Shown in pieces: positions 1-7,932 of a stretch of 7,932 nt of DNA. The position numbers and the translations under genes are program-made. Location: IMG/VR virus record IMGVR_UViG_2529293240_000012, positions 1-7,932 of that record; one strand, 5' to 3'. Under the pieces are notes generated by a model. It had not been told where the DNA came from. It did not search any database and saw nothing but the letters and a program-made list of their open reading frames with translations. The DNA is from a virus (Duplodnaviria; Heunggongvirae; Uroviricota; Caudoviricetes). Each line of letters opens with the position of its first letter. Positions within the stretch are counted from its first letter, which is position 1.

Positions 1-34
1 GTGTCGATGAGTCCGGAAAGTGCCGGTACATCAT

Positions 35-319
35 TCAGGCCGGGAAAATGGTGCTCTCCATCCACATATCCAGCTCTGAATCCGGTGCCTGTGCCCGAAT
101 GAAGACGGCAATATGCAGAACAGCCTGCCAGTCATCTTCATCCGTCATTTTTCCGGTGTACTGAGCATCACTCAGCCACACCGCCACGGCAGGCAGTTCC
201 TGCGCATCAATAAATGCCGGAAGCCCGTCAAAAAACGTGGCGCTGTCTCCACACTGTTCCCGAAGGCGTGCCAGTACGACCTGGCGGATCTGTGTATGTC
301 GGTTCATCGGGTCAGCCAT
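35..319 (-). CDS. Tail terminator protein, lambda gpU-like; reading frame broken near the 3' end (frameshift relative to gpU)
   Basis: The 94-aa ORF resembles lambda gpU as I recall it (ATFFDG..PAVAV..YTG...W...LHI.VF..AQ.PDSELD.WMES). A second ATG at 307 forms an ATGA overlap with the stop of the upstream Z-like gene and gives an N-terminus of gpU-like length; a GAGG lies just before the ATG at 319. The ORF stops at 35-37 (TGA), but the -1 frame continues LNDVPALSGLIDT to the window edge, matching the gpU region that follows (my recollection: DIPALSDLIT). Confidence 0.7.
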   Translation of the reverse strand: MADPMNRHTQIRQVVLARLREQCGDSATFFDGLPAFIDAQELPAVAVWLSDAQYTGKMTDEDDWQAVLHIAVFIRAQAPDSELDMWMESTIFPA

Positions 320-888
320 AACCTCAGTTGTTGTTTCAGTGCATACCCCAGCTGTTTCGGCATTTCCGCAGCAATGATGCGGTCGCGGGCATCTTCAAAT
401 GCCTGTGTCAGCGGTCCGGACAGCGGGATTTTCACCACATCAATGGGGTAACGATTTTTGCCGTCAATACGCCGCATCACATGCCAGCGACCATTCGCCA
501 GTTGCTGAATAAACGCATCCCGGAAAAGGTATTTCCCCACTTTCAGTACGCTGCCACGATGACGTGAGTTGCTGCCATGCCGGGAGCGGGCCAGTCTGAC
601 CTGTGCGGTACCCAGCTTAATGGCGGGCAGGTTACCCCGGTTAACACGCATGCGGGCATACATTTTTCCTGAGGGGCTGGCTTTAAGCAGCCTGACACGC
701 TCCCTGACCGTTTTCAGGGGAATACCTTTCACCTGGTTATCCCCGGCAACGGTATTCTGCGCAACCTGCCGTGTGGCGACAGAAATAATCTTTGCCGCCA
801 CACGGTTTACCGCCCATGCGCTGGCCTGTGGCACCATGCGGGTATCGAGGCTGTTCAGATTACGGATGGCATTCTCAAGCCCCTTCAT
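304..888 (-). CDS. Minor tail protein Z-like (lambda gpZ family, tail completion)
   Basis: 194-aa ORF whose size and position (just upstream of U) match lambda gpZ (about 192 aa). AGAGGTG Shine-Dalgarno about 6 nt upstream of the ATG at 886-888. Family assignment is from gene order plus recalled similarity. Confidence 0.65.
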   Translation of the reverse strand: MKGLENAIRNLNSLDTRMVPQASAWAVNRVAAKIISVATRQVAQNTVAGDNQVKGIPLKTVRERVRLLKASPSGKMYARMRVNRGNLPAIKLGTAQVRLARSRHGSNSRHRGSVLKVGKYLFRDAFIQQLANGRWHVMRRIDGKNRYPIDVVKIPLSGPLTQAFEDARDRIIAAEMPKQLGYALKQQLRLWLTR

Positions 889-899
889 CCCACACCTCT

Positions 900-1175
900 T
901 TACTCAATAAAGATCATTGGTTTACCGTTAAAGCGTTCATGCCGTGTGACCGTCCATTGTTGTCCGTCATAAACAACGCGGTCCCCGCGCCGTGGGCGGT
1001 ATCCCGAAGAAAACACCACCAGAGAGACCGCCGGTCCGGACAGAGCGTTCAGCTCTGCCAGAGTTTCTCCCGGGAGCACAGGCATATAAACATCATTAAT
1101 CGAGGCCATCTTTCCCATCTTTCTGACCGTGATCGCATCCATACGCGCTGCCAGCCGGGAAAAGGGATCAGACAT
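900..1175 (-). CDS. Head–tail joining protein at the lambda FII position (family often annotated as prophage ATP-binding sugar transporter-like)
   Basis: 91-aa ORF between the DUF2190-like gene and the Z-like gene, the position FII occupies in lambda (E-FI-FII-Z-U). Its ATG (1173-1175) overlaps the end of the upstream gene in an ATGnnTGA arrangement, suggesting translational coupling. Family call is from memory and is not certain. Confidence 0.5.
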   Translation of the reverse strand: MSDPFSRLAARMDAITVRKMGKMASINDVYMPVLPGETLAELNALSGPAVSLVVFSSGYRPRRGDRVVYDGQQWTVTRHERFNGKPMIFIE

Positions 1176-1491
1176 TGAGTTTTACCGGCACTTCTTCTGC
1201 ACCAGCTCCGGCATCTGCCCAGACAACCCCGACCAGCGGATCAGAGCCGCTGTTAGTCAGCTGAACTTTTCCGGACTTCAGAAAAACCTTCTTACCCGTT
1301 TTCATGTCATCCGTTTTCAGCTTAGGCAGCATAAACACACCTTCGGTCAGGCCGTCGCCTGTTTCACCCTGTGGAATATCGGTCAGCGCCACCGCAAAAA
1401 CATCACCCACCTGCACCAGATCTCCGCTGCTGATGGCTGCACTGGCAACAATCGCCACCGTTTTTCCTTCTTCTACAAAATTCTTTGCCAT
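1168..1491 (-). CDS. DUF2190-family small head protein (head decoration/cement-like)
   Basis: The ORF track starts at 1536, but an internal ATG at 1489-1491 is preceded by GGAGA 5-6 nt upstream and gives MAKNFVEEGKTV..., the typical DUF2190 N-terminus as I recall it. Sits immediately downstream of the capsid gene. 107 aa from this start. Confidence 0.6.
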   Translation of the reverse strand: MAKNFVEEGKTVAIVASAAISSGDLVQVGDVFAVALTDIPQGETGDGLTEGVFMLPKLKTDDMKTGKKVFLKSGKVQLTNSGSDPLVGVVWADAGAGAEEVPVKLNV

Positions 1492-1534
1492 AACTGTCTC
1501 CGCACAGCCCCGTTCAGGGGCTGATTTCAGGTAC

Positions 1535-1554
1535 AAAAAAAGCCCTTACGGGCC
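1535..1554 (-). terminator. Putative intrinsic terminator or attenuator downstream of the capsid gene
   Basis: On the minus strand, 21 nt after the capsid stop: G-GCCC-GUAA-GGGC-U followed by seven U (plus strand a7-gccc-ttac-gggc-c). The stem is only 4-5 bp but all G:C with a GNRA-type loop and a U7 tract. Lies in the 43-nt gap between the capsid stop (1578) and the DUF2190 start (1491). Confidence 0.35.
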
Positions 1555-1577
1555 ATCAGAGTTGTTGTCTGCGACGT

Positions 1578-3212
1578 TTACGCCGTACATTTCACCAGAC
1601 CGCGGTGATCAACTGGCGCAACACCAGCGTCAATACGCACTTTCGTTGTCACGCCATCCACACTGAAGCCCTCCATCTGATCAATATATGGCGTATCCAC
1701 ACCGTTGAGATAAGCCACTTCAATCGTATCGGAGCCTTTGGACGCTGCCAGATAAAAAGTGGTCTGGCTGTTATCATCAAGACGAGGCTCTGCAATAACG
1801 GTCGCAAAATCTTTCACCGGGTTAATAATACCGGCGTTAATGTCAGCCCCCTTGACACTTGAGGAGCGAATGACCTGGTTAGCAACAGACTCCATCGCCG
1901 TCGGTACCAGTACGAACGCAGGACGAATATTCAGATGACGCTCACCCTCTTTCTGAACACGCATCAACTGGCGGGCTTTATCCAGCGATGCCACGTCCAT
2001 TGCTGCGCTCTCCAGTACGTTTGCATGTTTCGCTTTATCGAACAGGCTTACATTATCTGTGGAGATTTTCGGGTTAGACGTCAGAATGGCATAAACCAGA
2101 TTGGCAATAGTGGATTTCGCCGCACGGCCCAGTTTCATCGGGACATCGGTCAGCATATTCAGATCATCGTTGATAATGGCCTGACGGGTGATACTGAACA
2201 GTTCACCATAGGTCGCCAGTGCAATCGTGGCCTGTTTATCTCCGGTAGTAACGTATTTATATTCCGCCCCTTCACGCACCTGACGCAGAGCACTGAAGCC
2301 CCCCATACCCACACGATGGGCAATTTTAAAATCAGACAGTTGACCTTTCCGCGTCCACTGTTCATAGGTTTCAGGGGCATCTTCCCAGCCCTGCAGAATG
2401 GCTTTGTTCGCAACATCCAGCAGAATATTACCGAAGTCAGACGTACTGTGTGTGAACGCTGCCCCGACCATCTGCATCGGGTTATAACCGGAAACCCCAA
2501 TACCCCGTTCAGTCAGTGACATACGGGCATATTCACGCAGGGTCATCCCGTTGTAGACATTATCACGTTCAGTTTTTTCAAACCCGGCACGCGCCATCAG
2601 CGCCTGGCGGATCCCGTCCCCCACAAAATTACCGTTTCCGGCATAAATATGGGCCGGGGTATTTTTATTTGATGGTGAAAATTCCTTACCCATTTCGTTA
2701 AGTAATTTCTCACGGGCCTGCTCAAGCGAGCACTCCGGATCGGAAAGACAACTGGCCTGCAATGTCTGATAACGCCCGCCAAACATACCAAACAGTTCAT
2801 TAATACCACTCACACGTGCTTTTTGCTCTGCCAGTACCTGCGCACGGATACTGCTTTCATCTGCGGAAGGTGCATTTGTGGTGGTCGCGGTTGTGGCAAC
2901 CTGAGCCGTAGTCTGCTCCTGTGTCTGAGATGCAGTATTTTTGTTTTCAGGTTCACGCGTTGCACTGTTGCGTGGCGGAGTAATCATGTTTCGAATGGAT
3001 TCCGGCATCTTTTTAAATTCCTCTGTACGTTTTGACTGAATACATGCCATTGCCTTAACGGCTGGCGTCACCTGATCAGCAAATCCATGTGCCAGACATT
3101 CGGCACCGGACATCCAGGTCTCATCCGCCAGCATGGCAGCAACTTCATCGGTGGTTTTCCCGGTTTTCTGTGCATAAGCGGGTAACAGAACCGCCTCAAC
3201 TTTATCGAGCAG
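1578..3212 (-). CDS. ClpP-like prohead protease–scaffold–major capsid fusion protein, 5' end interrupted by IS600 (probably a pseudogene)
   Basis: 518-aa ORF from the ATG at 3132-3134. The same frame stays open a further 26 codons upstream to the IS600 boundary at 3212 and only stops inside the IS. The residues just before and after the ATG (..AYAQKTGKTTDEVAAMLADETWMSGAECLAHGFADQV) match the C-terminal helix region of ClpP-type proteases. This is followed by a Thr/Ala/Gln-rich linker and about 400 aa of capsid-like sequence. The catalytic core of the protease is absent from the window. Confidence 0.75.
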   Translation of the reverse strand: MLDKVEAVLLPAYAQKTGKTTDEVAAMLADETWMSGAECLAHGFADQVTPAVKAMACIQSKRTEEFKKMPESIRNMITPPRNSATREPENKNTASQTQEQTTAQVATTATTTNAPSADESSIRAQVLAEQKARVSGINELFGMFGGRYQTLQASCLSDPECSLEQAREKLLNEMGKEFSPSNKNTPAHIYAGNGNFVGDGIRQALMARAGFEKTERDNVYNGMTLREYARMSLTERGIGVSGYNPMQMVGAAFTHSTSDFGNILLDVANKAILQGWEDAPETYEQWTRKGQLSDFKIAHRVGMGGFSALRQVREGAEYKYVTTGDKQATIALATYGELFSITRQAIINDDLNMLTDVPMKLGRAAKSTIANLVYAILTSNPKISTDNVSLFDKAKHANVLESAAMDVASLDKARQLMRVQKEGERHLNIRPAFVLVPTAMESVANQVIRSSSVKGADINAGIINPVKDFATVIAEPRLDDNSQTTFYLAASKGSDTIEVAYLNGVDTPYIDQMEGFSVDGVTTKVRIDAGVAPVDHRGLVKCTA

Positions 3213-3276
3213 TGAGGTAGCCTGAGTTTAACGGACACTCCTTCCTGAAATAGAATGGCATCAGAAGGAGCTAATA

Positions 3277-3579
3277 ATGAGCAGAAAAACCCAACGTTAC
3301 TCTAAAGAGTTCAAAGCCGAAGCTGTCAGAACGGTTCTTGAAAATCAACTTTCGATCAGTGAAGGCGCTTCCCGATTATCCCTTCCTGAAGGCACTTTAG
3401 GACAATGGGTTACCGCCGCCAGAAAAGGGCTCGGTACTCCTGGTTCCCGCACGGTGGCTGAACTGGAATCTGAAATTCTGCAACTGCGTAAGGCGTTAAA
3501 TGAAGCTCGCCTTGAGCGAGATATATTAAAAAAAGCAACAGCGTATTTTGCACAGGAGTCGCTGAAAAATACGCGTTAA
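3277..3579 (+). CDS. IS600-like transposase OrfA (HTH DNA-binding subunit)
   Basis: 100-aa ORF with AGGAG 8 nt upstream of the ATG. C-terminal leucine-zipper-like region (ELESEILQLRKALNEARLERDILKKATAYF) typical of IS3-family OrfA. Slippery run A AAA AAA at 3528-3534 near the 3' end. Confidence 0.85.
   Translation: MSRKTQRYSKEFKAEAVRTVLENQLSISEGASRLSLPEGTLGQWVTAARKGLGTPGSRTVAELESEILQLRKALNEARLERDILKKATAYFAQESLKNTR
3528..3534 (+). other. Probable programmed -1 ribosomal frameshift heptamer (A AAA AAA) joining IS600 orfA to orfB
   Basis: The heptamer is in the X XXY YYZ phase of orfA. A -1 slip gives ..KKSNSVFCTGVAEKYALIEQWRQQFPIEAMCQVFGVSRSGYY.., which is the orfB frame and a typical IS3-family OrfAB junction. 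Confidence 0.6.
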
Positions 3580-3614
3580 TCGAACAATGGCGACAACAAT
3601 TTCCCATTGAAGCG

Positions 3615-4434
3615 ATGTGTCAGGTATTTGGTGTATCCAGGAGCGGTTATTACAACTGGGTACAGCATGAACCCTCAGACAGAAAACAAAGTGATGAGCG
3701 GCTAAAACTGGAGATTAAGGTGGCACATATCCGCACTCGCGAAACATATGGAACCCGGCGGCTCCAGACGGAGCTGGCAGAGAATGGCATCATCGTTGGT
3801 CGTGACCGACTGGCACGTCTTCGTAAGGAGCTAAGGCTACGCTGTAAGCAGAAACGCAAGTTCAGAGCGACTACGAACCCGAACCACAATCTGCCAGTTG
3901 CGCCAAATCTGCTGAACCAGACGTTCGCTCCTACAGCACCAAATCAGGTCTGGGTGGCGGACCTGACGTATGTTGCCACACAGGAGGGATGGTTGTACCT
4001 CGCTGGCATCAAAGATGTTTATACGTGCGAAATTGTCGGCTACGCCATGGGAGAGCGCATGACAAAAGAGCTGACAGGTAAAGCCCTGTTTATGGCGCTC
4101 AGGAGCCAGCGCCCACCTGCCGGGCTAATCCACCACTCTGATCGAGGTTCACAGTACTGCGCATACGATTACCGGGTCATACAGGAGCAGTCTGGTCTGA
4201 AAACATCAATGTCGCGTAAAGGTAACTGTTACGACAACGCTCCGATGGAAAGCTTCTGGGGAACGCTAGAAAAATGAGAGCCTGAGCCACTATCGTTTTA
4301 ATAACCGGGATGAAGCCATCTCAGTAATACGGGAATACATTGAGATTTTCTACAATCGTCAGCGTCGTCACTCTCGTCTGGGGAATATCTCCCCGGCAGC
4401 CTTCAGGGAAAAATATCATCAGATGGCTGCTTAA
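3615..4434 (+). pseudogene. IS600-like transposase OrfB (DDE catalytic subunit), interrupted by a frameshift near 4265-4277
   Basis: The ORF from the ATG at 3615 ends at TGA 4275-4277 after 220 aa (..ESFWGTLEK*). The +1 frame continues immediately as NESLSHYRFNNRDEAISVIREYIEIFYNRQRRHSRLGNISPAAFREKYHQMAA to 4434, the conserved IS3-family OrfB C-terminus. 218+1+53 = 272 aa, the expected intact length. Consistent with a single-base insertion. Confidence 0.75.
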
Positions 4435-4477
4435 AAAAAGAACAAATGGTAGTGTCCGCTATTGCCAGTACACCTCA

Positions 4478-4602
4478 CTGTTCAGCATGGTTGTAACGAC
4501 AATTTCGGTGAAATACTTAGTGGGTAGCTCCTGACCGAATACCAGTACAGTTTCTTTGTCAGCGCTTAGTGCGATATCCAGTTTGCGATAAGTAATAGAC
4601 AT
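4478..4602 (-). pseudogene. 5' stub (41 codons) of a gene cut off by IS600; possibly the N-terminus of the ClpP-like protease
   Basis: ATG at 4600-4602 with AAGGAG 7 nt upstream. Encodes MSITYRKLDIALSADKETVLVFGQELPTKYFTEIVVTTMLN, then runs into the IS600 right end and stops 6 codons inside it. Weak resemblance to the ClpP N-terminal beta-strand region (..KERVIFLTGQVED..IVAQML..). Not in frame with the 3' part across the IS. Confidence 0.35.
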
Positions 4603-4707
4603 ATTTGTTTCTCCTTTTGAAAAGATGTTTTAAAAAGATTGAACTTATCGGTCTTCCATAGGTATTCCTACGGCGTCTCCCCGTATCTTGGTCAGTTCAA
4701 AAGGTGG

Positions 4708-4757: not shown

Positions 4758-4982
4758 TTACATGAAATCTCTTGGGGTCAGCCCTGCGTCAACCGCCATG
4801 AGACAGAGGGCAGCCTTAGAGTAATACGGGCGGATTTCCTTGGCAGGCAGACCCAGAGTAGCTATCAGCGCCTTGGTGGGTACTACCATCAGGCGTAACG
4901 CCTTACGGCCTTCTGGTGTCCTTGGGTCAATCTTGATGCTAGCTGTGCTAGTGATGTTGGTGCCATTTGTGTTATTATTCAT
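4758..4982 (-). CDS. Hypothetical small protein (74 aa), translationally coupled to the upstream Rha-family gene
   Basis: ATG at 4980-4982 overlaps the Rha gene stop (minus strand ..CATGAATAA..) and is preceded by GGAGGAGG. Asn/Thr-rich N-terminus followed by a more ordinary 50-aa region. I recognise no family. Confidence 0.5.
   Translation of the reverse strand: MNNNTNGTNITSTASIKIDPRTPEGRKALRLMVVPTKALIATLGLPAKEIRPYYSKAALCLMAVDAGLTPRDFM
4937..4953. repeat. 17-bp exact repeat TGCTAGCTGTGCTAGTG (copy 2, inside the 5' end of the 74-aa ORF)
   Basis: Exact copy of 4708-4724 in the same orientation, 229 bp away. On the minus strand it encodes ITSTAS near the N-terminus of the 74-aa protein. Confidence 0.6.
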
Positions 4983-5676
4983 GAATTACCTCCTCCAGCC
5001 TTGCTACTGCCTGTAGGTGTTGCTGTTTAGCAGCGTCGCTTCCATGAACCGCTATGACCTTTCCGCGCATCTTGAGTACGTTTTCAGGTCGGCTGAAGAA
5101 CTCCAGTCCCTTGGCGTTAAACCGAATGTTTATACCGTTCGGGTTGAATCGATGGTCAGTAGGTTTGATAATTCGAAAGTATTCCGCATAGTCTGGATTG
5201 ACTGACCACTCGCCACTGAAAGGATGTACTCGGAACAACTTGCGCTCTTTCTTAAGGATGGTCATCAGTTTCTGAGCGGGTAGACCATTGGCCTTGCAGT
5301 AATCGCCCCAAGTCACGCCTCGACGGTTAGCCGACTGAATGACCGCTCGTTTCTTCTGGTCTTCCAGTTGAAGGACTCTCTGTTCTAACGCCTGAATATG
5401 GTCGTAGCATTTAGCACGGAGGCGAGCAGAATAACCAGCGACCAGAATAAAGGTATGCTTTCGGTCTAGGCGATACATTACCCGGCTCTCGCCTTTAGCG
5501 TCCTTGTATACTTCCTCGCTAACCGGCTCAGTTTTGAGCGCGTTAAGCTCCTCAACCATATTGCGAATATCACGCAGGACATTTCGGTGTGCCTTGCCTG
5601 TCATCTCGGCAATTTCAACTGAGGTCATGGAGATAAGCTGGTCAAGGTTAATGACGCTGATTCCTTGTTGAGACAT
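4975..5676 (-). CDS. Phage regulatory protein, Rha family (antirepressor-like; N-terminal Rha domain plus a C-terminal domain of uncertain type)
   Basis: From the ATG at 5674-5676 (AAGGAAA about 8 nt upstream) the product is 233 aa. N-terminus MSQQGISVINLDQLISMTSVEIAEMTGKAHRNVLRDIRNMVEEL matches the Rha-domain signature (..EIAE.TGK.H.NVLRDI..). The longer ORF-track start at 5772 adds an implausible Leu/Val/Arg-rich extension and has no ribosome-binding site. Confidence 0.7.
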   Translation of the reverse strand: MSQQGISVINLDQLISMTSVEIAEMTGKAHRNVLRDIRNMVEELNALKTEPVSEEVYKDAKGESRVMYRLDRKHTFILVAGYSARLRAKCYDHIQALEQRVLQLEDQKKRAVIQSANRRGVTWGDYCKANGLPAQKLMTILKKERKLFRVHPFSGEWSVNPDYAEYFRIIKPTDHRFNPNGINIRFNAKGLEFFSRPENVLKMRGKVIAVHGSDAAKQQHLQAVARLEEVIHE

Positions 5677-5818
5677 AGCTTGATTTCCTTTTGTTTGCAC
5701 CCTGAAGCCGCACCCCACTGGCCTACTCAAAGTCCCCAAGCGAAGGGAGACCAGCAGGACAACAGGATGCAAACAGAATGACTTTGAGATTGAATGAATG
5801 AATGGTGATGATTGTGTC

Positions 5819-5836
5819 GTAGCTGTGCGGAGCTAC
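5819..5836. repeat. Inverted repeat GTAGCT-GTGCGG-AGCTAC upstream of the Rha-family gene; shares TAGCTGTGC with the 17-bp repeats
   Basis: 6-bp arms with a 6-bp spacer, about 145 bp upstream of the Rha start and about 50 bp from the IS2 left end. The 9-mer TAGCTGTGC is common to all three sites. Confidence 0.3.
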
Positions 5837-5977
5837 TGTATGGTGAAGCGCGAGAGGTGGAACTTTGGGAGAGACACGTGGTGCTATAGACTGGCCCCCT
5901 GAATCTCCAGACAACCAGTATCACTTATTTAAGTGATAGTCTTAATACTAGTTTTTAGACTAGTCATTGGAGAACAG

Positions 5978-6343
5978 ATGATTGATGTCTTAGGGCCGGA
6001 GAAACGCAGACGGCGTACCACACAGGAAAAGATCGCAATTGTTCAGCAGAGCTTTGAACCGGGGATGACGGTCTCCCTCGTTGCCCGGCAACATGGTGTA
6101 GCAGCCAGCCAGTTATTTCTCTGGCGTAAGCAATACCAGGAAGGAAGTCTTACTGCTGTGGCCGCCGGAGAACAGGTTGTTCCTGCCTCTGAACTTGCTG
6201 CCGCCATGAAGCAGATTAAAGAACTCCAGCGCCTGCTCGGCAAGAAAACGATGGAAAATGTACTCCTCAAAGAAGCCGTTGAATATGGACGGGCAAAAAA
6301 GTGGATAGCGCACGCGCCCTTATTGCCCGGGGATGGGGAGTAA
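5978..6343 (+). CDS. insC: IS2 transposase OrfA (InsC)
   Basis: 121-aa product [41 protein letters not shown].. from the ATG at 5978 with GGAGAA upstream. The ORF track starts at 5933, but that start lies partly in the terminal inverted repeat. Slippery A AAA AAG at 6295-6301. Confidence 0.9.
6295..6301 (+). other. IS2 programmed -1 frameshift site (A AAA AAG) for the OrfAB fusion transposase
   Basis: The heptamer is in the orfA phase (gca AAA AAG tgg) at the start of the orfA/orfB overlap. This is the known IS2 frameshift window. Confidence 0.8.
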
Positions 6344-7206
6344 GCTTAGTCAGCCGTTGTCTCCGGGTGTCGCGTGCGCAGTTGCACGTCATTCTCAGAC
6401 GAACCGATGACTGGATGGATGGCCGCCGCAGTCGTCACACTGATGATACGGATGTGCTTCTCCGTATACACCATGTTATCGGAGAGCTGCCCACGTATGG
6501 TTATCGTCGGGTATGGGCGCTGCTTCGCAGACAGGCAGAACTTGATGGTATGCCTGCGATCAATGCCAAACGTGTTTACCGGATCATGCGCCAGAATGCG
6601 CTGTTGCTTGAGCGAAAACCTGCTGTACCGCCATCGAGACGGGCACATACAGGCAGAGTAGCCGTGAAAGAAAGCAATCAGCGATGGTGCTCTGACGGGT
6701 TCGAGTTCTGCTGTGATAACGGAGAGAGACTGCGTGTCACGTTCGCGCTGGACTGCTGTGATCGTGAGGCACTGCACTGGGCGGTGACTACCGGCGGCTT
6801 CAACAGTGAAACAGTACAGGACGTCATGCTGGGAGCGGTGGAACGCCGCTTCGGCAACGATCTTCCGTCGTCTCCAGTGGAGTGGCTGACGGATAATGGT
6901 TCATGCTACCGGGCTAATGAAACACGCCAGTTCGCCCGGATGTTGGGACTTGAACCGAAGAACACGGCGGTGCGGAGTCCGGAGAGTAACGGAATAGCAG
7001 AGAGCTTCGTGAAAACGATAAAGCGTGACTACATCAGTATCATGCCCAAACCAGACGGGTTAACGGCAGCAAAGAACCTTGCAGAGGCGTTCGAGCATTA
7101 TAACGAATGGCATCCGCATAGTGCGCTGGGTTATCGCTCGCCACGGGAATATCTGCGGCAGCGGGCTTGTAATGGGTTAAGTGATAACAGATGTCTGGAA
7201 ATATAG
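6301..7206 (+). CDS. insD: IS2 transposase OrfB (InsD, DDE catalytic domain)
   Basis: 301-aa ORF starting at GTG 6301, matching IS2 InsD as I recall it; uninterrupted. Confidence 0.9.
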
Positions 7207-7830
7207 GGGCAAATCCAGAGAGTTCTCCGCTTCATATTGCTCAAAGAGGCTCGCTATGGTAATGCTAGGCGTAACTTCTGGTTTTACTTCTGGAGCACTA
7301 ACAGATAGGGACACAGGGGCTTGGTCATCTTGCCGATCAATATCATTAAAACGATCGACGTAATCTATCAGAGGCTGACTATCTCCCGCTTCGATACGCC
7401 TCATACAGGCTTTTAGCACCTTCAGGGCCTCATTGATGTAACGATGCTGGTCAATACTTAGCGGCTCACTAGCCAGAGCATCGGTAAGGCTCTCACCAAG
7501 TTCTCCGTATTGGTCCCGGTAGATATCCCTCATGTCAGGCTCAAAGAGATCTGAACGGCCCATAGACAGTTCACACTCAGCGATGTCCTTAAGGTGCTCC
7601 CTCATCTCCTCATAGGTAGCGTTGGGTCTGTCTGCGTGTATTGCCTTGAGTGCTGCCTTGATGTGCCTTGAGTGAGCCATAGCGGTGCGTCTATCCTTGG
7701 TCCGTAATGATACTGAGGTCATTCTATCATTGTTTGATTGTCTGACCCGAAGACGGAAGTAGTAGACGCCGTTACGCTGGTAGAGATAGGAGACGGCTGG
7801 AAGTTTGTGACTACTGGATAGCTGAATCAT
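7177..7830 (-). CDS. Tyrosine integrase-like protein, N-terminal fragment (arm-type DNA-binding domain); 3' end replaced by IS2
   Basis: N-terminus ..[38 protein letters not shown].. fits the arm-binding motif of phage integrases (compare the ..SLGTKDKRQA.. segment I recall from DLP12 IntD). The last 13 codons and the stop lie inside the IS2 right inverted repeat (7177-7217), so the native gene is cut at 7218. No downstream catalytic domain in the window. The frame is also open upstream of the ATG at 7830 to the window edge, but that extension does not look coding. Confidence 0.45.
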
Positions 7831-7932
7831 ATGTCTGTATGCCCTGAGAGGGTTACACAGTGGGTTACAGTAAGTAACTCTGCAAGGAGGCTTAAAGCCA
7901 TATCCCTTAGGATTCAGTAAGTTGGAATACTT

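Follow-up and report, generated by a model that had tools for sequence, protein, structure and literature searches.

The IS600 element at positions 3213–4477 of the window is very probably the scar of an IS600-mediated deletion in a lambdoid prophage of Shigella flexneri, and not the product of a simple insertion. (The window is the whole stretch of DNA that we analyzed: 7,932 nucleotides, a contig of S. flexneri J1713.) The original prediction, which was made from the window alone, was that IS600 splits a gene for a protease-capsid fusion protein. Instead, the two flanks of the element come from two different genes.

IS600 and its flanks

The element and its immediate flanks are:

3213..4477, + strand: IS600 (IS3 family), 1265 bp, with near-identity to known copies over the full length, terminal inverted repeats, and HTH_Tnp_1 and rve domains
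3277-3579, + strand: orfA of IS600, 100 amino acids, HTH_Tnp_1
from 3615, with a normal end at 4434, + strand: orfB of IS600, HTH_21 and rve
3210..3212: left flank, CAG, where homology to the intact prophage gene ends
4478..4480: right flank, CTG, which differs from CAG

The element had been correctly named: across its full length (1–1265), it is 99.8–99.9% identical to 1264-bp annotated copies of IS600 on plasmids of Shigella and E. coli, which are annotated as "IS3-like element IS600 family transposase." It begins with TG and ends with CA (TGAGGTAGCC... from 3213 and ...ACACCTCA to 4477) and has imperfect terminal inverted repeats at 3213–3239 and 4451–4477. It has the two overlapping ORFs of IS600, with an A-rich –1 frameshift site (TTAAAAAAAG) at 3527–3536, close to the end of orfA. 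The window's copy has an additional A at 4264–4268, possibly a homopolymer error of the draft, which makes it 1265 bp instead of 1264 bp and breaks orfB by leading to a stop at 4275–4277. The extra A is not present in J17B, where the IS600 product was called as a single protein of 385 amino acids.

As the original prediction pointed out, there is no 3-bp direct repeat at the flanks of this element (CAG vs. CTG). Control copies of IS600 at two independent loci do have 3-bp duplications (AGC/AGC and TCC/TCC), so the missing duplication at 3213–4477 is meaningful. The alignment to the prophage of E. coli FDAARGOS_944 ends exactly after 3212, and homology to an uninterrupted DUF6971 gene begins at 4478 (or at 4477, with an ambiguous A included). 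A proposed check was to see if an uninterrupted homolog has the two flanks side by side, and 3212 and 4478 were adjacent in none of the intact homologs that we examined. In homologs, the left flank runs on through protease codons 142 to 1 and into the portal gene, while the right flank runs on into codons 42–136 of DUF6971.

In our own comparison, the two target sites are alike at 12 of 19 positions around the junction. Despite these shared bases, we rejected a microhomology-mediated deletion: the break is exactly at the terminus of the IS, which implies IS-based events and not microhomology joining.

The truncated protease-capsid gene

To the left of IS600 is:

1578..3212, – strand: the 3' 1635 nt (codons 143–686 and the stop) of a gene for a fusion of a ClpP-like prohead protease and a major capsid protein; the N-terminal 142 codons are absent

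The translation of 1578–3212 on the minus strand gives 544 amino acids without a stop, and as originally reported, the capsid frame is open from 3134 up to the left end of IS600 at 3212. These 544 amino acids are 98% identical to residues 143–686 of the intact 686-residue protein from E. coli DS26-1. Pfam's Phage_capsid_4 matches residues 246–541 of the truncated protein (E = 2e-54), and CLP_protease matches over profile positions 132–179 of 182 only; in the intact protein, CLP_protease is at residues 34–191. Part of the protease had been expected to be missing, and indeed all 142 of the N-terminal codons are absent. However, the protease residues that remain number about 49, and not about 90 as had been estimated, because the 41 codons on the other side of IS600 are not from the protease. 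The missing 142 residues include the motifs GVAASMA and MMIHKP, which by analogy with ClpP we take to be the ClpP-type motifs with the presumed catalytic Ser and His.

Positions 1–3212 of the window are 99.3% identical to the FDAARGOS_944 prophage, in which the gene extends for another 426 nt (142 codons) and has the portal gene before it. The start of the protease overlaps the end of the portal gene in intact homologs, with no stub or intergenic region there. Among 10 genomic contexts of the cement protein, none had IS600 in the protease gene: all of them have the portal gene and then an uninterrupted protease-capsid region. Like the fusion genes of Gifsy-like lambdoid prophages in E. coli and Shigella, the window's copy has the usual cement (DUF2190), Gifsy-2-type, Z-like, and U-like genes downstream. 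It differs from them in lacking the N-terminal 142 residues, with the ClpP-type Ser and His motifs, and in that the portal gene no longer precedes it.

The 41-codon ORF and the DUF6971 family

To the right of IS600 is:

4478..4602, – strand: the first 125 nt (41 codons and 2 nt) of a gene in the DUF6971 family, identified with Pfam PF22318 and an alignment of homologs

The original prediction correctly described a 41-codon gene start that abuts the right end of IS600 and has a strong ribosome-binding site: the ATG is at 4602, and AAGGAG is at 4611–4616 (minus strand), 8 nt upstream of the ATG. But the prediction took this stub to be the N terminus of the protease and proposed a comparison to the ClpP family. 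The stub matches DUF6971 instead (PF22318; E = 1.5e-15; 57.5 bits, where the gathering cutoff is 27 bits; profile positions 1–35 of 89). In alignments with eight full-length homologs (the intact DUF6971 protein has 136 amino acids), the stub begins at residue 1, and it differs from a full-length protein from S. flexneri (P0002) at just 2 of 41 residues. At the DNA level, the stub is homologous to the uninterrupted gene of E. coli LR-64-1, with the start codon and the ribosome-binding site conserved. In contrast, BLASTP found no similarity between the stub and the intact 686-residue fusion protein. Judging by these alignments, the stub is the start of an unrelated island gene and not the N terminus of the protease; the original prediction had itself named this outcome as evidence against its reading.

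The open capsid frame on one side of IS600 and the gene start that faces its other end are what made a simple insertion into the protease-capsid gene seem plausible. Given that the stub is from DUF6971 and is not similar to the fusion protein, that no intact homolog that we examined has the flanks next to each other, and that there is no 3-bp duplication (unlike the control copies), we consider a simple insertion to be almost certainly wrong. Also, as had been noticed from the window, the two parts are in different frames (125 mod 3 = 2).

Comparison to an intact prophage

The complete chromosome of S. flexneri 3a J17B (CP100042) contains both of the IS600 junctions, and its arrangement is identical to that of the window, with 4 differences in 7932 bases. 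(Our reading of J17B covers the prophage region.) The order in J17B is the antiterminator gene Q, four tRNAs, the truncated integrase, IS2, Rha, the 74-residue gene, truncated DUF6971, IS600, the truncated capsid gene, and the tail genes. Because J1713 and J17B may be one strain that was sequenced twice, J17B is an independent assembly but not an independent isolate. In several further draft genomes, we found contigs of 1.40–1.47 kb with Rha and the 74-residue gene, most of which also have the DUF6971 stub; the size of these contigs fits the segment from IS2 to IS600. The window is a draft contig from the short-read era that contains two IS copies, so it could in principle have been misjoined through the repeated IS600. 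Given the identical arrangement in a complete chromosome (an independent assembly, if possibly of the same strain) and the fit of the other drafts' contigs to the IS2-to-IS600 interval, we view such a chimera as very improbable.

When we compared the J17B locus (L004) to an intact E. coli prophage (L011), L004 2189–7038 and 11770–14087 corresponded to L011 15414–10565 and 2317–1, with 99.1–99.4% identity and with strand and order conserved. The sole gap, at 2318–10564 of L011, runs from the holin through the first 142 codons of the protease. As measured on this E. coli reference, the prophage has lost 8247 bp. From a related copy of the island, we estimate that another ~2.0 kb of the island was lost, so the total loss would be about 10.2 kb.

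The unmatched flanks, together with collinearity to the intact prophage except for the gap, bear out the original suggestion of a deletion or a recombination between IS copies instead of a simple insertion. The suggested loss of part of the protease holds up as well, but the deletion is far larger than was supposed: the lysis, terminase, and portal genes are gone along with the 142 protease codons. Without those genes and without the protease's active site, the prophage cannot form particles, so it is defective, as predicted.

Hybrid flanks can also arise from an inversion between IS copies, and Shigella genomes contain many such rearrangements (PMC7373316). If there had been an inversion or translocation via distant copies of IS600, then the portal gene and the N-terminal part of the protease gene would survive elsewhere, beside another IS600. 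This seems very unlikely: both flanks retain the order and orientation of the intact prophage, while a single inversion would flip one of them, and, immediately upstream, the island occupies the phage tRNA.

An island at a phage-borne tRNA-Gly gene

The rest of the window, to the right of the DUF6971 stub, contains:

4758..4982, – strand: 74-residue island gene, function unknown, the syntenic neighbor of DUF6971
4975..5676, – strand: Rha/anti-repressor-like island gene (Pfam Phage_pRha; PHROG anti-repressor, E = 2e-42)
5887..7217, + strand: IS2, 1331 bp, with ends read directly; it matches an IS copy of S. flexneri CP024470 with 100% identity
7218..7830, – strand: the first 204 codons of the tyrosine integrase gene of the island, cut off by IS2 (544 amino acids when intact)
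7831..7932, – strand: island DNA from the start of the integrase towards attL; position 7932 of the window is position 7051 of the J17B locus

The gene order in the window (truncated integrase, Rha, the 74-residue gene, truncated DUF6971) is the same as in an island module of ~6 kb, which comprises the integrase, Rha, a small ORF, DUF6971, and a 379-residue protein. The module is complete in E. coli LR-64-1 and in S. flexneri CP024470. Klebsiella pneumoniae ATCC 13883 has the integrase, the small ORF, DUF6971, and the 379-residue protein, with no match for Rha. All three of these copies are at tRNA-Gly(CCC). The DNA of the integrase remnant is 93.6% identical to the integrase beside tRNA-Gly in LR-64-1; the remnant has the N-terminal domain DUF6538, and residues 335–523 of the intact protein match Phage_integrase. 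IS2, which is 1.4 kb from IS600, usually duplicates 5 bp, and this duplication is absent as well (TGCTA vs. GAGAG).

The contig ends 12–13 nt short of a phage-borne tRNA-Gly(UCC), whose end is at position 7038 of the J17B locus. In J17B, attL is a hybrid: the phage's tRNA-Gly(UCC) has a glyU-type 3' end (TTCGCCCGCTCCA), while the empty phage tRNA ends with GCTGCCCGCTCCA. The layout of this hybrid is the 5' part of the phage's tRNA-Gly(UCC) and then TTCGCCCGCTCCATGACC. The corresponding attR is seen in S. flexneri UGYR01000001, to the right of intact DUF6971 and the gene for the 379-residue protein: the end of the island is followed by CGATTCCC GCTGCCCGCTCCA and then by phage DNA toward the holin. 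These junctions place the crossover inside GGTTCGATTCCC and show site-specific integration within the prophage. When we searched the LR-64-1 island and J17B for the tRNA's 3' end as an attR copy, with at most 3 mismatches, we found none; the attR of LR-64-1, which we later found by alignment, is more diverged (AGGTTCCC TTCGCCCGCTCCA). The island copy that shows attR (L024) has ~90% DNA identity to the window's copy and resembles the glyU copy of S. flexneri, so we use it as a model of the undeleted arrangement and not as the direct ancestor.

The usual home of the island is the chromosomal glyU, which encodes tRNA-Gly(CCC); in S. flexneri, it is also found within the prophage's tRNA-Gly(UCC), immediately after Q. 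A search for loci with the DUF6971 alignment gave just two, which is too few for a survey of integration sites.

Proposed history of the junction

The ancestral prophage would have started with Q and then a tRNA cluster (Met/Ile2, Arg, Thr, and Gly-UCC). Next would have come the ~6-kb island, with the integrase, Rha, the 74-residue gene, DUF6971, and the 379-residue protein, in the 3' part of the phage's tRNA-Gly; the island was probably complete at this site at one time. The rest would have been holin, lysozyme, Rz, KilA-N, DUF1441, the large terminase, portal, the protease-capsid fusion, and the tail genes, with all of the ancestral genes read in one direction. Copies of IS600 in the same orientation would then have arrived at a CTG target in DUF6971 and at a CAG target in the protease gene. 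The two copies would have undergone homologous recombination, with the loss of the DNA between them, and the single remaining IS600 would have taken one flank from DUF6971 and the other from the protease gene.

Intramolecular transposition of IS600 from one site into the other would give an identical product: one IS, unmatched flanks, and collinear flanking DNA. In that case, IS600 would have inserted once, into either DUF6971 or the protease gene, and there would never have been a second stable copy. The likeness of the two targets (12/19) fits with target choice by the transposase, but it fits equally well with two independent insertions. IS3-family elements transpose by a copy-out-paste-in mechanism, via a circular intermediate, which does not by itself delete the adjacent DNA. 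Recombination between IS copies is the documented route in Shigella, for instance on pINV, as reported in PMC5629016. We therefore favor homologous recombination between two copies, and we regard the single-IS600 route as possible but distinctly less likely.

If two copies were present, or if there had been an inversion or translocation, the ancestral (or reciprocal) junction in the protease gene is predicted to be CCAGTACACCTCA (the right end of IS600), CAG, and GTCGGCATAGGTGC (the N-terminal side of the protease, which starts with GTCGGCATAGG next to CAG). The predicted counterpart has the C-terminal side of DUF6971, ...GTACTG, and then the left end of IS600, TGAGGTAGCCTGAG.

Occurrence in other genomes

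We recovered the junction between codon 41 of DUF6971 and codon 143 of the protease only from S. flexneri J1713/J17B and from a few assemblies or read sets. Across 5426 complete E. coli genomes, no record covered at least 80% of the query for either junction of the window or for the attL of the island in the phage tRNA, and therefore that collection has no intermediate or identical arrangement. We found no genome that carries the presumed intermediate, in which IS600 would be at either site within a matching duplication and the far side would be intact. Exact-protein look-ups, with the 74-residue protein and the 47-residue product of the stub as queries, led to just two long contigs (the window's own and J17B), both with the deleted arrangement; the others were short and ended near the IS600 junction. 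Finally, we used a degenerate 27-nt pattern that fits the window's right junction, as a positive control, as well as the predicted reciprocal junction (the right end of IS600, CAG, and the N-terminal side of the protease). Against collections of genome and metagenome contigs, it gave 0 matches, even for the control, so these collections do not contain this lineage, and the result carries no weight against the predicted junction.

Implications

Shigella chromosomes contain 229–348 IS copies, and the expanded elements are IS1, IS2, IS4, IS600, and IS911 (Hawkey et al. 2020, PMC7373316). With its full-length IS600, hybrid flanks, deletion junction, and cryptic prophage, the window resembles the IS-mediated deletions and pseudogenes that are described there, and it is no different in kind. 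The deletion is an instance of known Shigella biology: ordinary genome decay.

For annotation, the 41-codon ORF and the capsid gene should not be merged into one "IS-interrupted" pseudogene, as they are the remnants of two genes from two mobile elements. As a rule of thumb, non-matching flanks around an IS indicate the scar of a rearrangement, and the partner of each flank should be identified before concluding that a gene is split.

The wider interest lies solely in the island: a glyU-specific element that attached at a phage-borne tRNA-Gly gene, which put it within a prophage, at the start of the late operon. This is reminiscent of the helper-embedded satellites, or HE-PICIs (Mageeney et al. 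2023, PMC10111431), which are also small integrase-bearing islands within prophages and co-oriented with the late operon. The window's island differs from them in that its site is a phage-borne tRNA-Gly gene and not a gene for a late protein, and in that it has no match to a primase, AlpA, or a capsid-related family. One known insertion site of HE-PICIs is in the protease gene (CLP_protease:110; PMC10111431). We considered if the island is a HE-PICI in the protease gene and rejected this: attL is at tRNA-Gly, and the break in the protease is bounded by IS600, with no att site.

Phage satellites are recognized by genes for primase or replication, AlpA, and packaging or capsid redirection, and by mobilization by a helper (a list drawn in part from PMC10111431). 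When we scanned the five island proteins with profiles, only the integrase and the Rha/Ant-like regulator were informative; the other three had no informative match, and DUF6971 had a weak match to a PHROG of unknown function. Thus, the scan did not identify satellite genes.

It is doubtful, but conceivable, that the island is a phage-parasitic, satellite-like element that lands in phage-borne tRNA genes, and that its presence here is not an accidental off-target event. If so, the island would be co-transcribed with the late genes of its helper and would travel with it, and DUF6971 and the 379-residue protein would act on the phage. Both partners would simply have been killed later by the IS600 deletion.

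The flanks of IS600 come from two different genes

The window is the entirety of contig AFOW01000038.1 from assembly GCA_000217895.2, the assembly given for Shigella flexneri J1713 (PMC6397287). Its minus strand encodes phage head and tail genes (35 to 3134), and it also contains two insertion sequences and a few small genes. All 7932 bases are present, with four differences, in the complete chromosome of S. flexneri 3a J17B (CP100042; PMC10732043), so the join that we describe is not a chimera of the draft assembly. Judging from their names, J1713 and J17B may be one and the same.

The element at 3213-4477 is IS600. Over its full length, it is 99.8-99.9% identical to annotated 1264-bp copies of IS600 from Shigella and E. 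coli plasmids. It encodes orfA, with an HTH_Tnp_1 domain, and orfB, with an rve domain, and it starts with TGAGGTAGCC and ends with ACACCTCA; these terminal inverted repeats are imperfect. We set its ends to the base by alignment to uninterrupted relatives: homology to an E. coli prophage ends after 3212, and homology to an intact DUF6971 gene begins at 4478 (the A at 4477 is ambiguous). The flanks are CAG and CTG, without a 3-bp duplication. Two independent control copies of IS600 from other loci have clean 3-bp duplications (AGC/AGC and TCC/TCC), so the absence of a duplication in the window is a real signal.

The window's IS600 has a run of five A at 4264-4268, versus four in the J17B copy. 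The extra A brings the element to 1265 bp (the plasmid copies have 1264 bp) and shifts the frame of orfB, with a stop at 4275-4277. This could be a homopolymer error in the draft or a real inactivating mutation.

To the left of IS600, the minus strand has a stop-free translation of 544 amino acids (1578-3212). It shares 98% identity with residues 143-686 of an intact 686-amino-acid protein from E. coli DS26-1, annotated as [quoted passage not shown] In Pfam, the intact protein has CLP_protease at 34-191 and Phage_capsid_4 at 388-683; in the window's copy, CLP_protease is reduced to profile positions 132-179 of 182. The 142 absent residues include GVAASMA and MMIHKP, which we take to be the Ser and His motifs by analogy with ClpP. 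In all of the intact homologues, the start of the protease gene overlaps the end of a 501-amino-acid portal gene.

To the right of IS600 is a stub of 41 codons (4602 down to 4478), preceded at a distance of 8 nt by AAGGAG. The stub matches positions 1-35 of 89 of Pfam's DUF6971 (57.5 bits; the cut-off is 27) and aligns with 136-amino-acid DUF6971 proteins starting at residue 1. It differs from a full-length DUF6971 protein of S. flexneri at just 2 of 41 residues, and BLASTP found no similarity between the stub and the 686-amino-acid fusion protein. The stub is not a protease. The original prediction was right about IS600 and its unduplicated CAG and CTG flanks, as the alignments and the control copies confirm, but it took the stub for the protease's N-terminus. 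Because the stub belongs to an unrelated gene, IS600 does not split the fusion gene, and the predicted remnant of about 90 protease residues must be given up.

Features to the right of IS600 in the window
4478-4602, minus strand, DUF6971 stub
4758-4982, 74-amino-acid gene
4975-5676, Rha
5887-7217, IS2
7218-7830, integrase, first 204 codons

This gene order matches that of a small island in E. coli LR-64-1, where an intact DUF6971 gene lies in an island adjoining tRNA-Gly(CCC), presumably the glyU that E. coli K-12 has between actS and the yqe genes. The LR-64-1 island encodes an integrase (544 amino acids), Rha, a small ORF, DUF6971, and a protein of ~375 amino acids. The same module is found at tRNA-Gly(CCC) in S. 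flexneri CP024470 and, without a match to Rha, in Klebsiella pneumoniae ATCC 13883. Beyond the integrase and the Rha/Ant-like regulator, family searches gave no informative match for the island's proteins. The glyU-resident copy in CP024470 (1245-13400), a second copy of the island in S. flexneri, is full of IS elements, and there a different IS interrupts DUF6971 at codon 66; the gene has therefore been struck independently at least twice in S. flexneri.

The island lies within a prophage

In J17B, phage replication genes, ninH, and Q are followed by four tRNAs: Met (as called by ARAGORN; the matching gene is annotated as Ile in the E. coli record), Arg, Thr, and Gly-UCC. Then come the integrase fragment, IS2, Rha, the 74-amino-acid gene, the DUF6971 stub, and IS600, and beyond IS600 are the truncated capsid gene, cement, and tail genes. 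On both sides, J17B shares 99% identity with a prophage of E. coli FDAARGOS_944. From Q onwards, this prophage has the same four tRNAs, holin, lysozyme, Rz, KilA-N, DUF1441, terminase, a small gene, portal, and protease-capsid, uninterrupted. The two J17B segments align to it collinearly and without a change of strand, and the only part absent from J17B is 8247 bp (2318-10564 of this locus, L011).

FDAARGOS_944 has at least five lambdoid prophages (L011, L016-L020) whose cement proteins are identical and whose head modules are nearly so. The annotation marks frameshifts in several genes of these prophages; they may stem from errors in the assembly and not from true decay.

In the empty phage site, the 3' end of tRNA-Gly reads ...GGTTCGATTCCC GCTGCCCGCTCCA. 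In J17B, it reads ...GGTTCGATTCCC TTCGCCCGCTCCA, followed by island DNA. The J17B end is of the glyU tRNA-Gly(CCC) type (TTCGTCCGCTCCA in LR-64-1 and TTTGCCCGCTCCA in CP024470), and the attR fragment at the opposite end of the LR-64-1 island has exactly the same sequence as the J17B end. The reciprocal junction is found in S. flexneri UGYR01000001 (L024): an intact DUF6971 gene and a 379-amino-acid gene precede the island end, after which come CGATTCCC GCTGCCCGCTCCA and then phage DNA that leads toward holin and lysozyme. (The regions compared were window 7831-7932 and just beyond, or 6964-7152 of the J17B locus L004, and 12094-12115 of L024.) These junctions carry the signature of integrase-mediated insertion, with the crossover in the T-loop core. 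The insertion places the island within the prophage, where it has the tRNAs on one side and the lysis genes on the other and is co-oriented with the late genes. The UGYR01000001 island is ~90% identical to the window's copy and resembles the S. flexneri glyU variant, so it shows the undeleted arrangement and is not a direct ancestor.

An island whose usual site is chromosomal glyU sits in a phage-borne tRNA-Gly(UCC), downstream of Q and at the head of the late operon. On reading the hybrid attL tRNA, we saw that the glyU-type 3' end brings two stem mismatches. A search of 5426 complete E. coli genomes for the attL between island and phage tRNA found it in none. Helper prophages with embedded satellites have been described, but the satellites' sites are late protein genes (PMC10111431), whereas this island's site is a tRNA gene. 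Literal-phrase searches of the literature turned up no case of an island attaching at a tRNA gene carried by a phage, which is a weak sign that this is new. It is conceivable, though improbable, that the island is a phage-parasitic, satellite-like element that uses phage-borne tRNA genes as landing sites.

A very probable deletion, with IS600 at the join

With the island in the prophage, the DUF6971 and protease genes would have been ~10 kb apart on a single stretch of DNA, both pointing the same way. What is seen now would then be exactly this stretch without the part between DUF6971 nucleotide 125 and protease codon 143, and a single IS600 joins the two ends. The lost phage DNA measures 8.2 kb, and we estimate the lost island DNA at ~2.0 kb (from 10127-12115 of L024). 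An inversion is unlikely because both flanks retain the order and orientation of the reference. An IS600-mediated deletion is very probable. If so, we lean toward homologous recombination between two directly oriented copies, one in DUF6971 (target CTG) and one in the protease gene (target CAG), which would leave only one copy, flanked by the DUF6971 site on one side and the protease site on the other. An intramolecular attack by one IS600 on a second site would yield an identical product; we consider this route possible but less likely. Exact-protein look-ups returned only the deleted form and no intermediate with two IS600 copies, and the collections that were scanned by pattern did not include this lineage. 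The original prediction's fallback, an IS-adjacent deletion or recombination between IS copies, agrees with the collinear flanks and the absence of 8247 bp of the intact prophage, and a prophage lacking this segment is indeed defective.

The inferred target sites are alike (GAGCAGGTCGGCATAGGTG versus GTACTGTTCAGCATGGTTG, 12 of 19 positions), in a comparison of window 3204-3212 and 4478-4496 with L001 6505-6532 that covers only four sites. The present flanks, GAGCAG and CTGTTC, are near reverse complements. The likeness may reflect target preference or chance.

IS-bounded decay of the prophage

A full-length IS2 (5887-7217, 1331 bp) lies 1.4 kb from IS600. IS2 usually makes a 5-bp duplication; this copy's flanks are TGCTA and GAGAG, without duplication, which is consistent with IS-bounded decay of the prophage. 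IS2 cuts the island's integrase after codon 204, and the C-terminal 340 codons are lost. The 234 bp on its other side (5653-5886) have a weak match to the Klebsiella island (86.7% over ~100 nt). Here a second IS-associated deletion, of about 2.5 kb, probably took place.

Five IS, IS600 among them, have expanded in every Shigella species, and Shigella chromosomes contain 229-348 IS copies (PMC7373316). Deletions by IS-IS recombination are well documented in Shigella, for instance for pINV (PMC5629016). Given this background, an IS-bounded deletion in a decayed lambdoid prophage is to be expected, and the IS600 deletion junction is of an already known kind.
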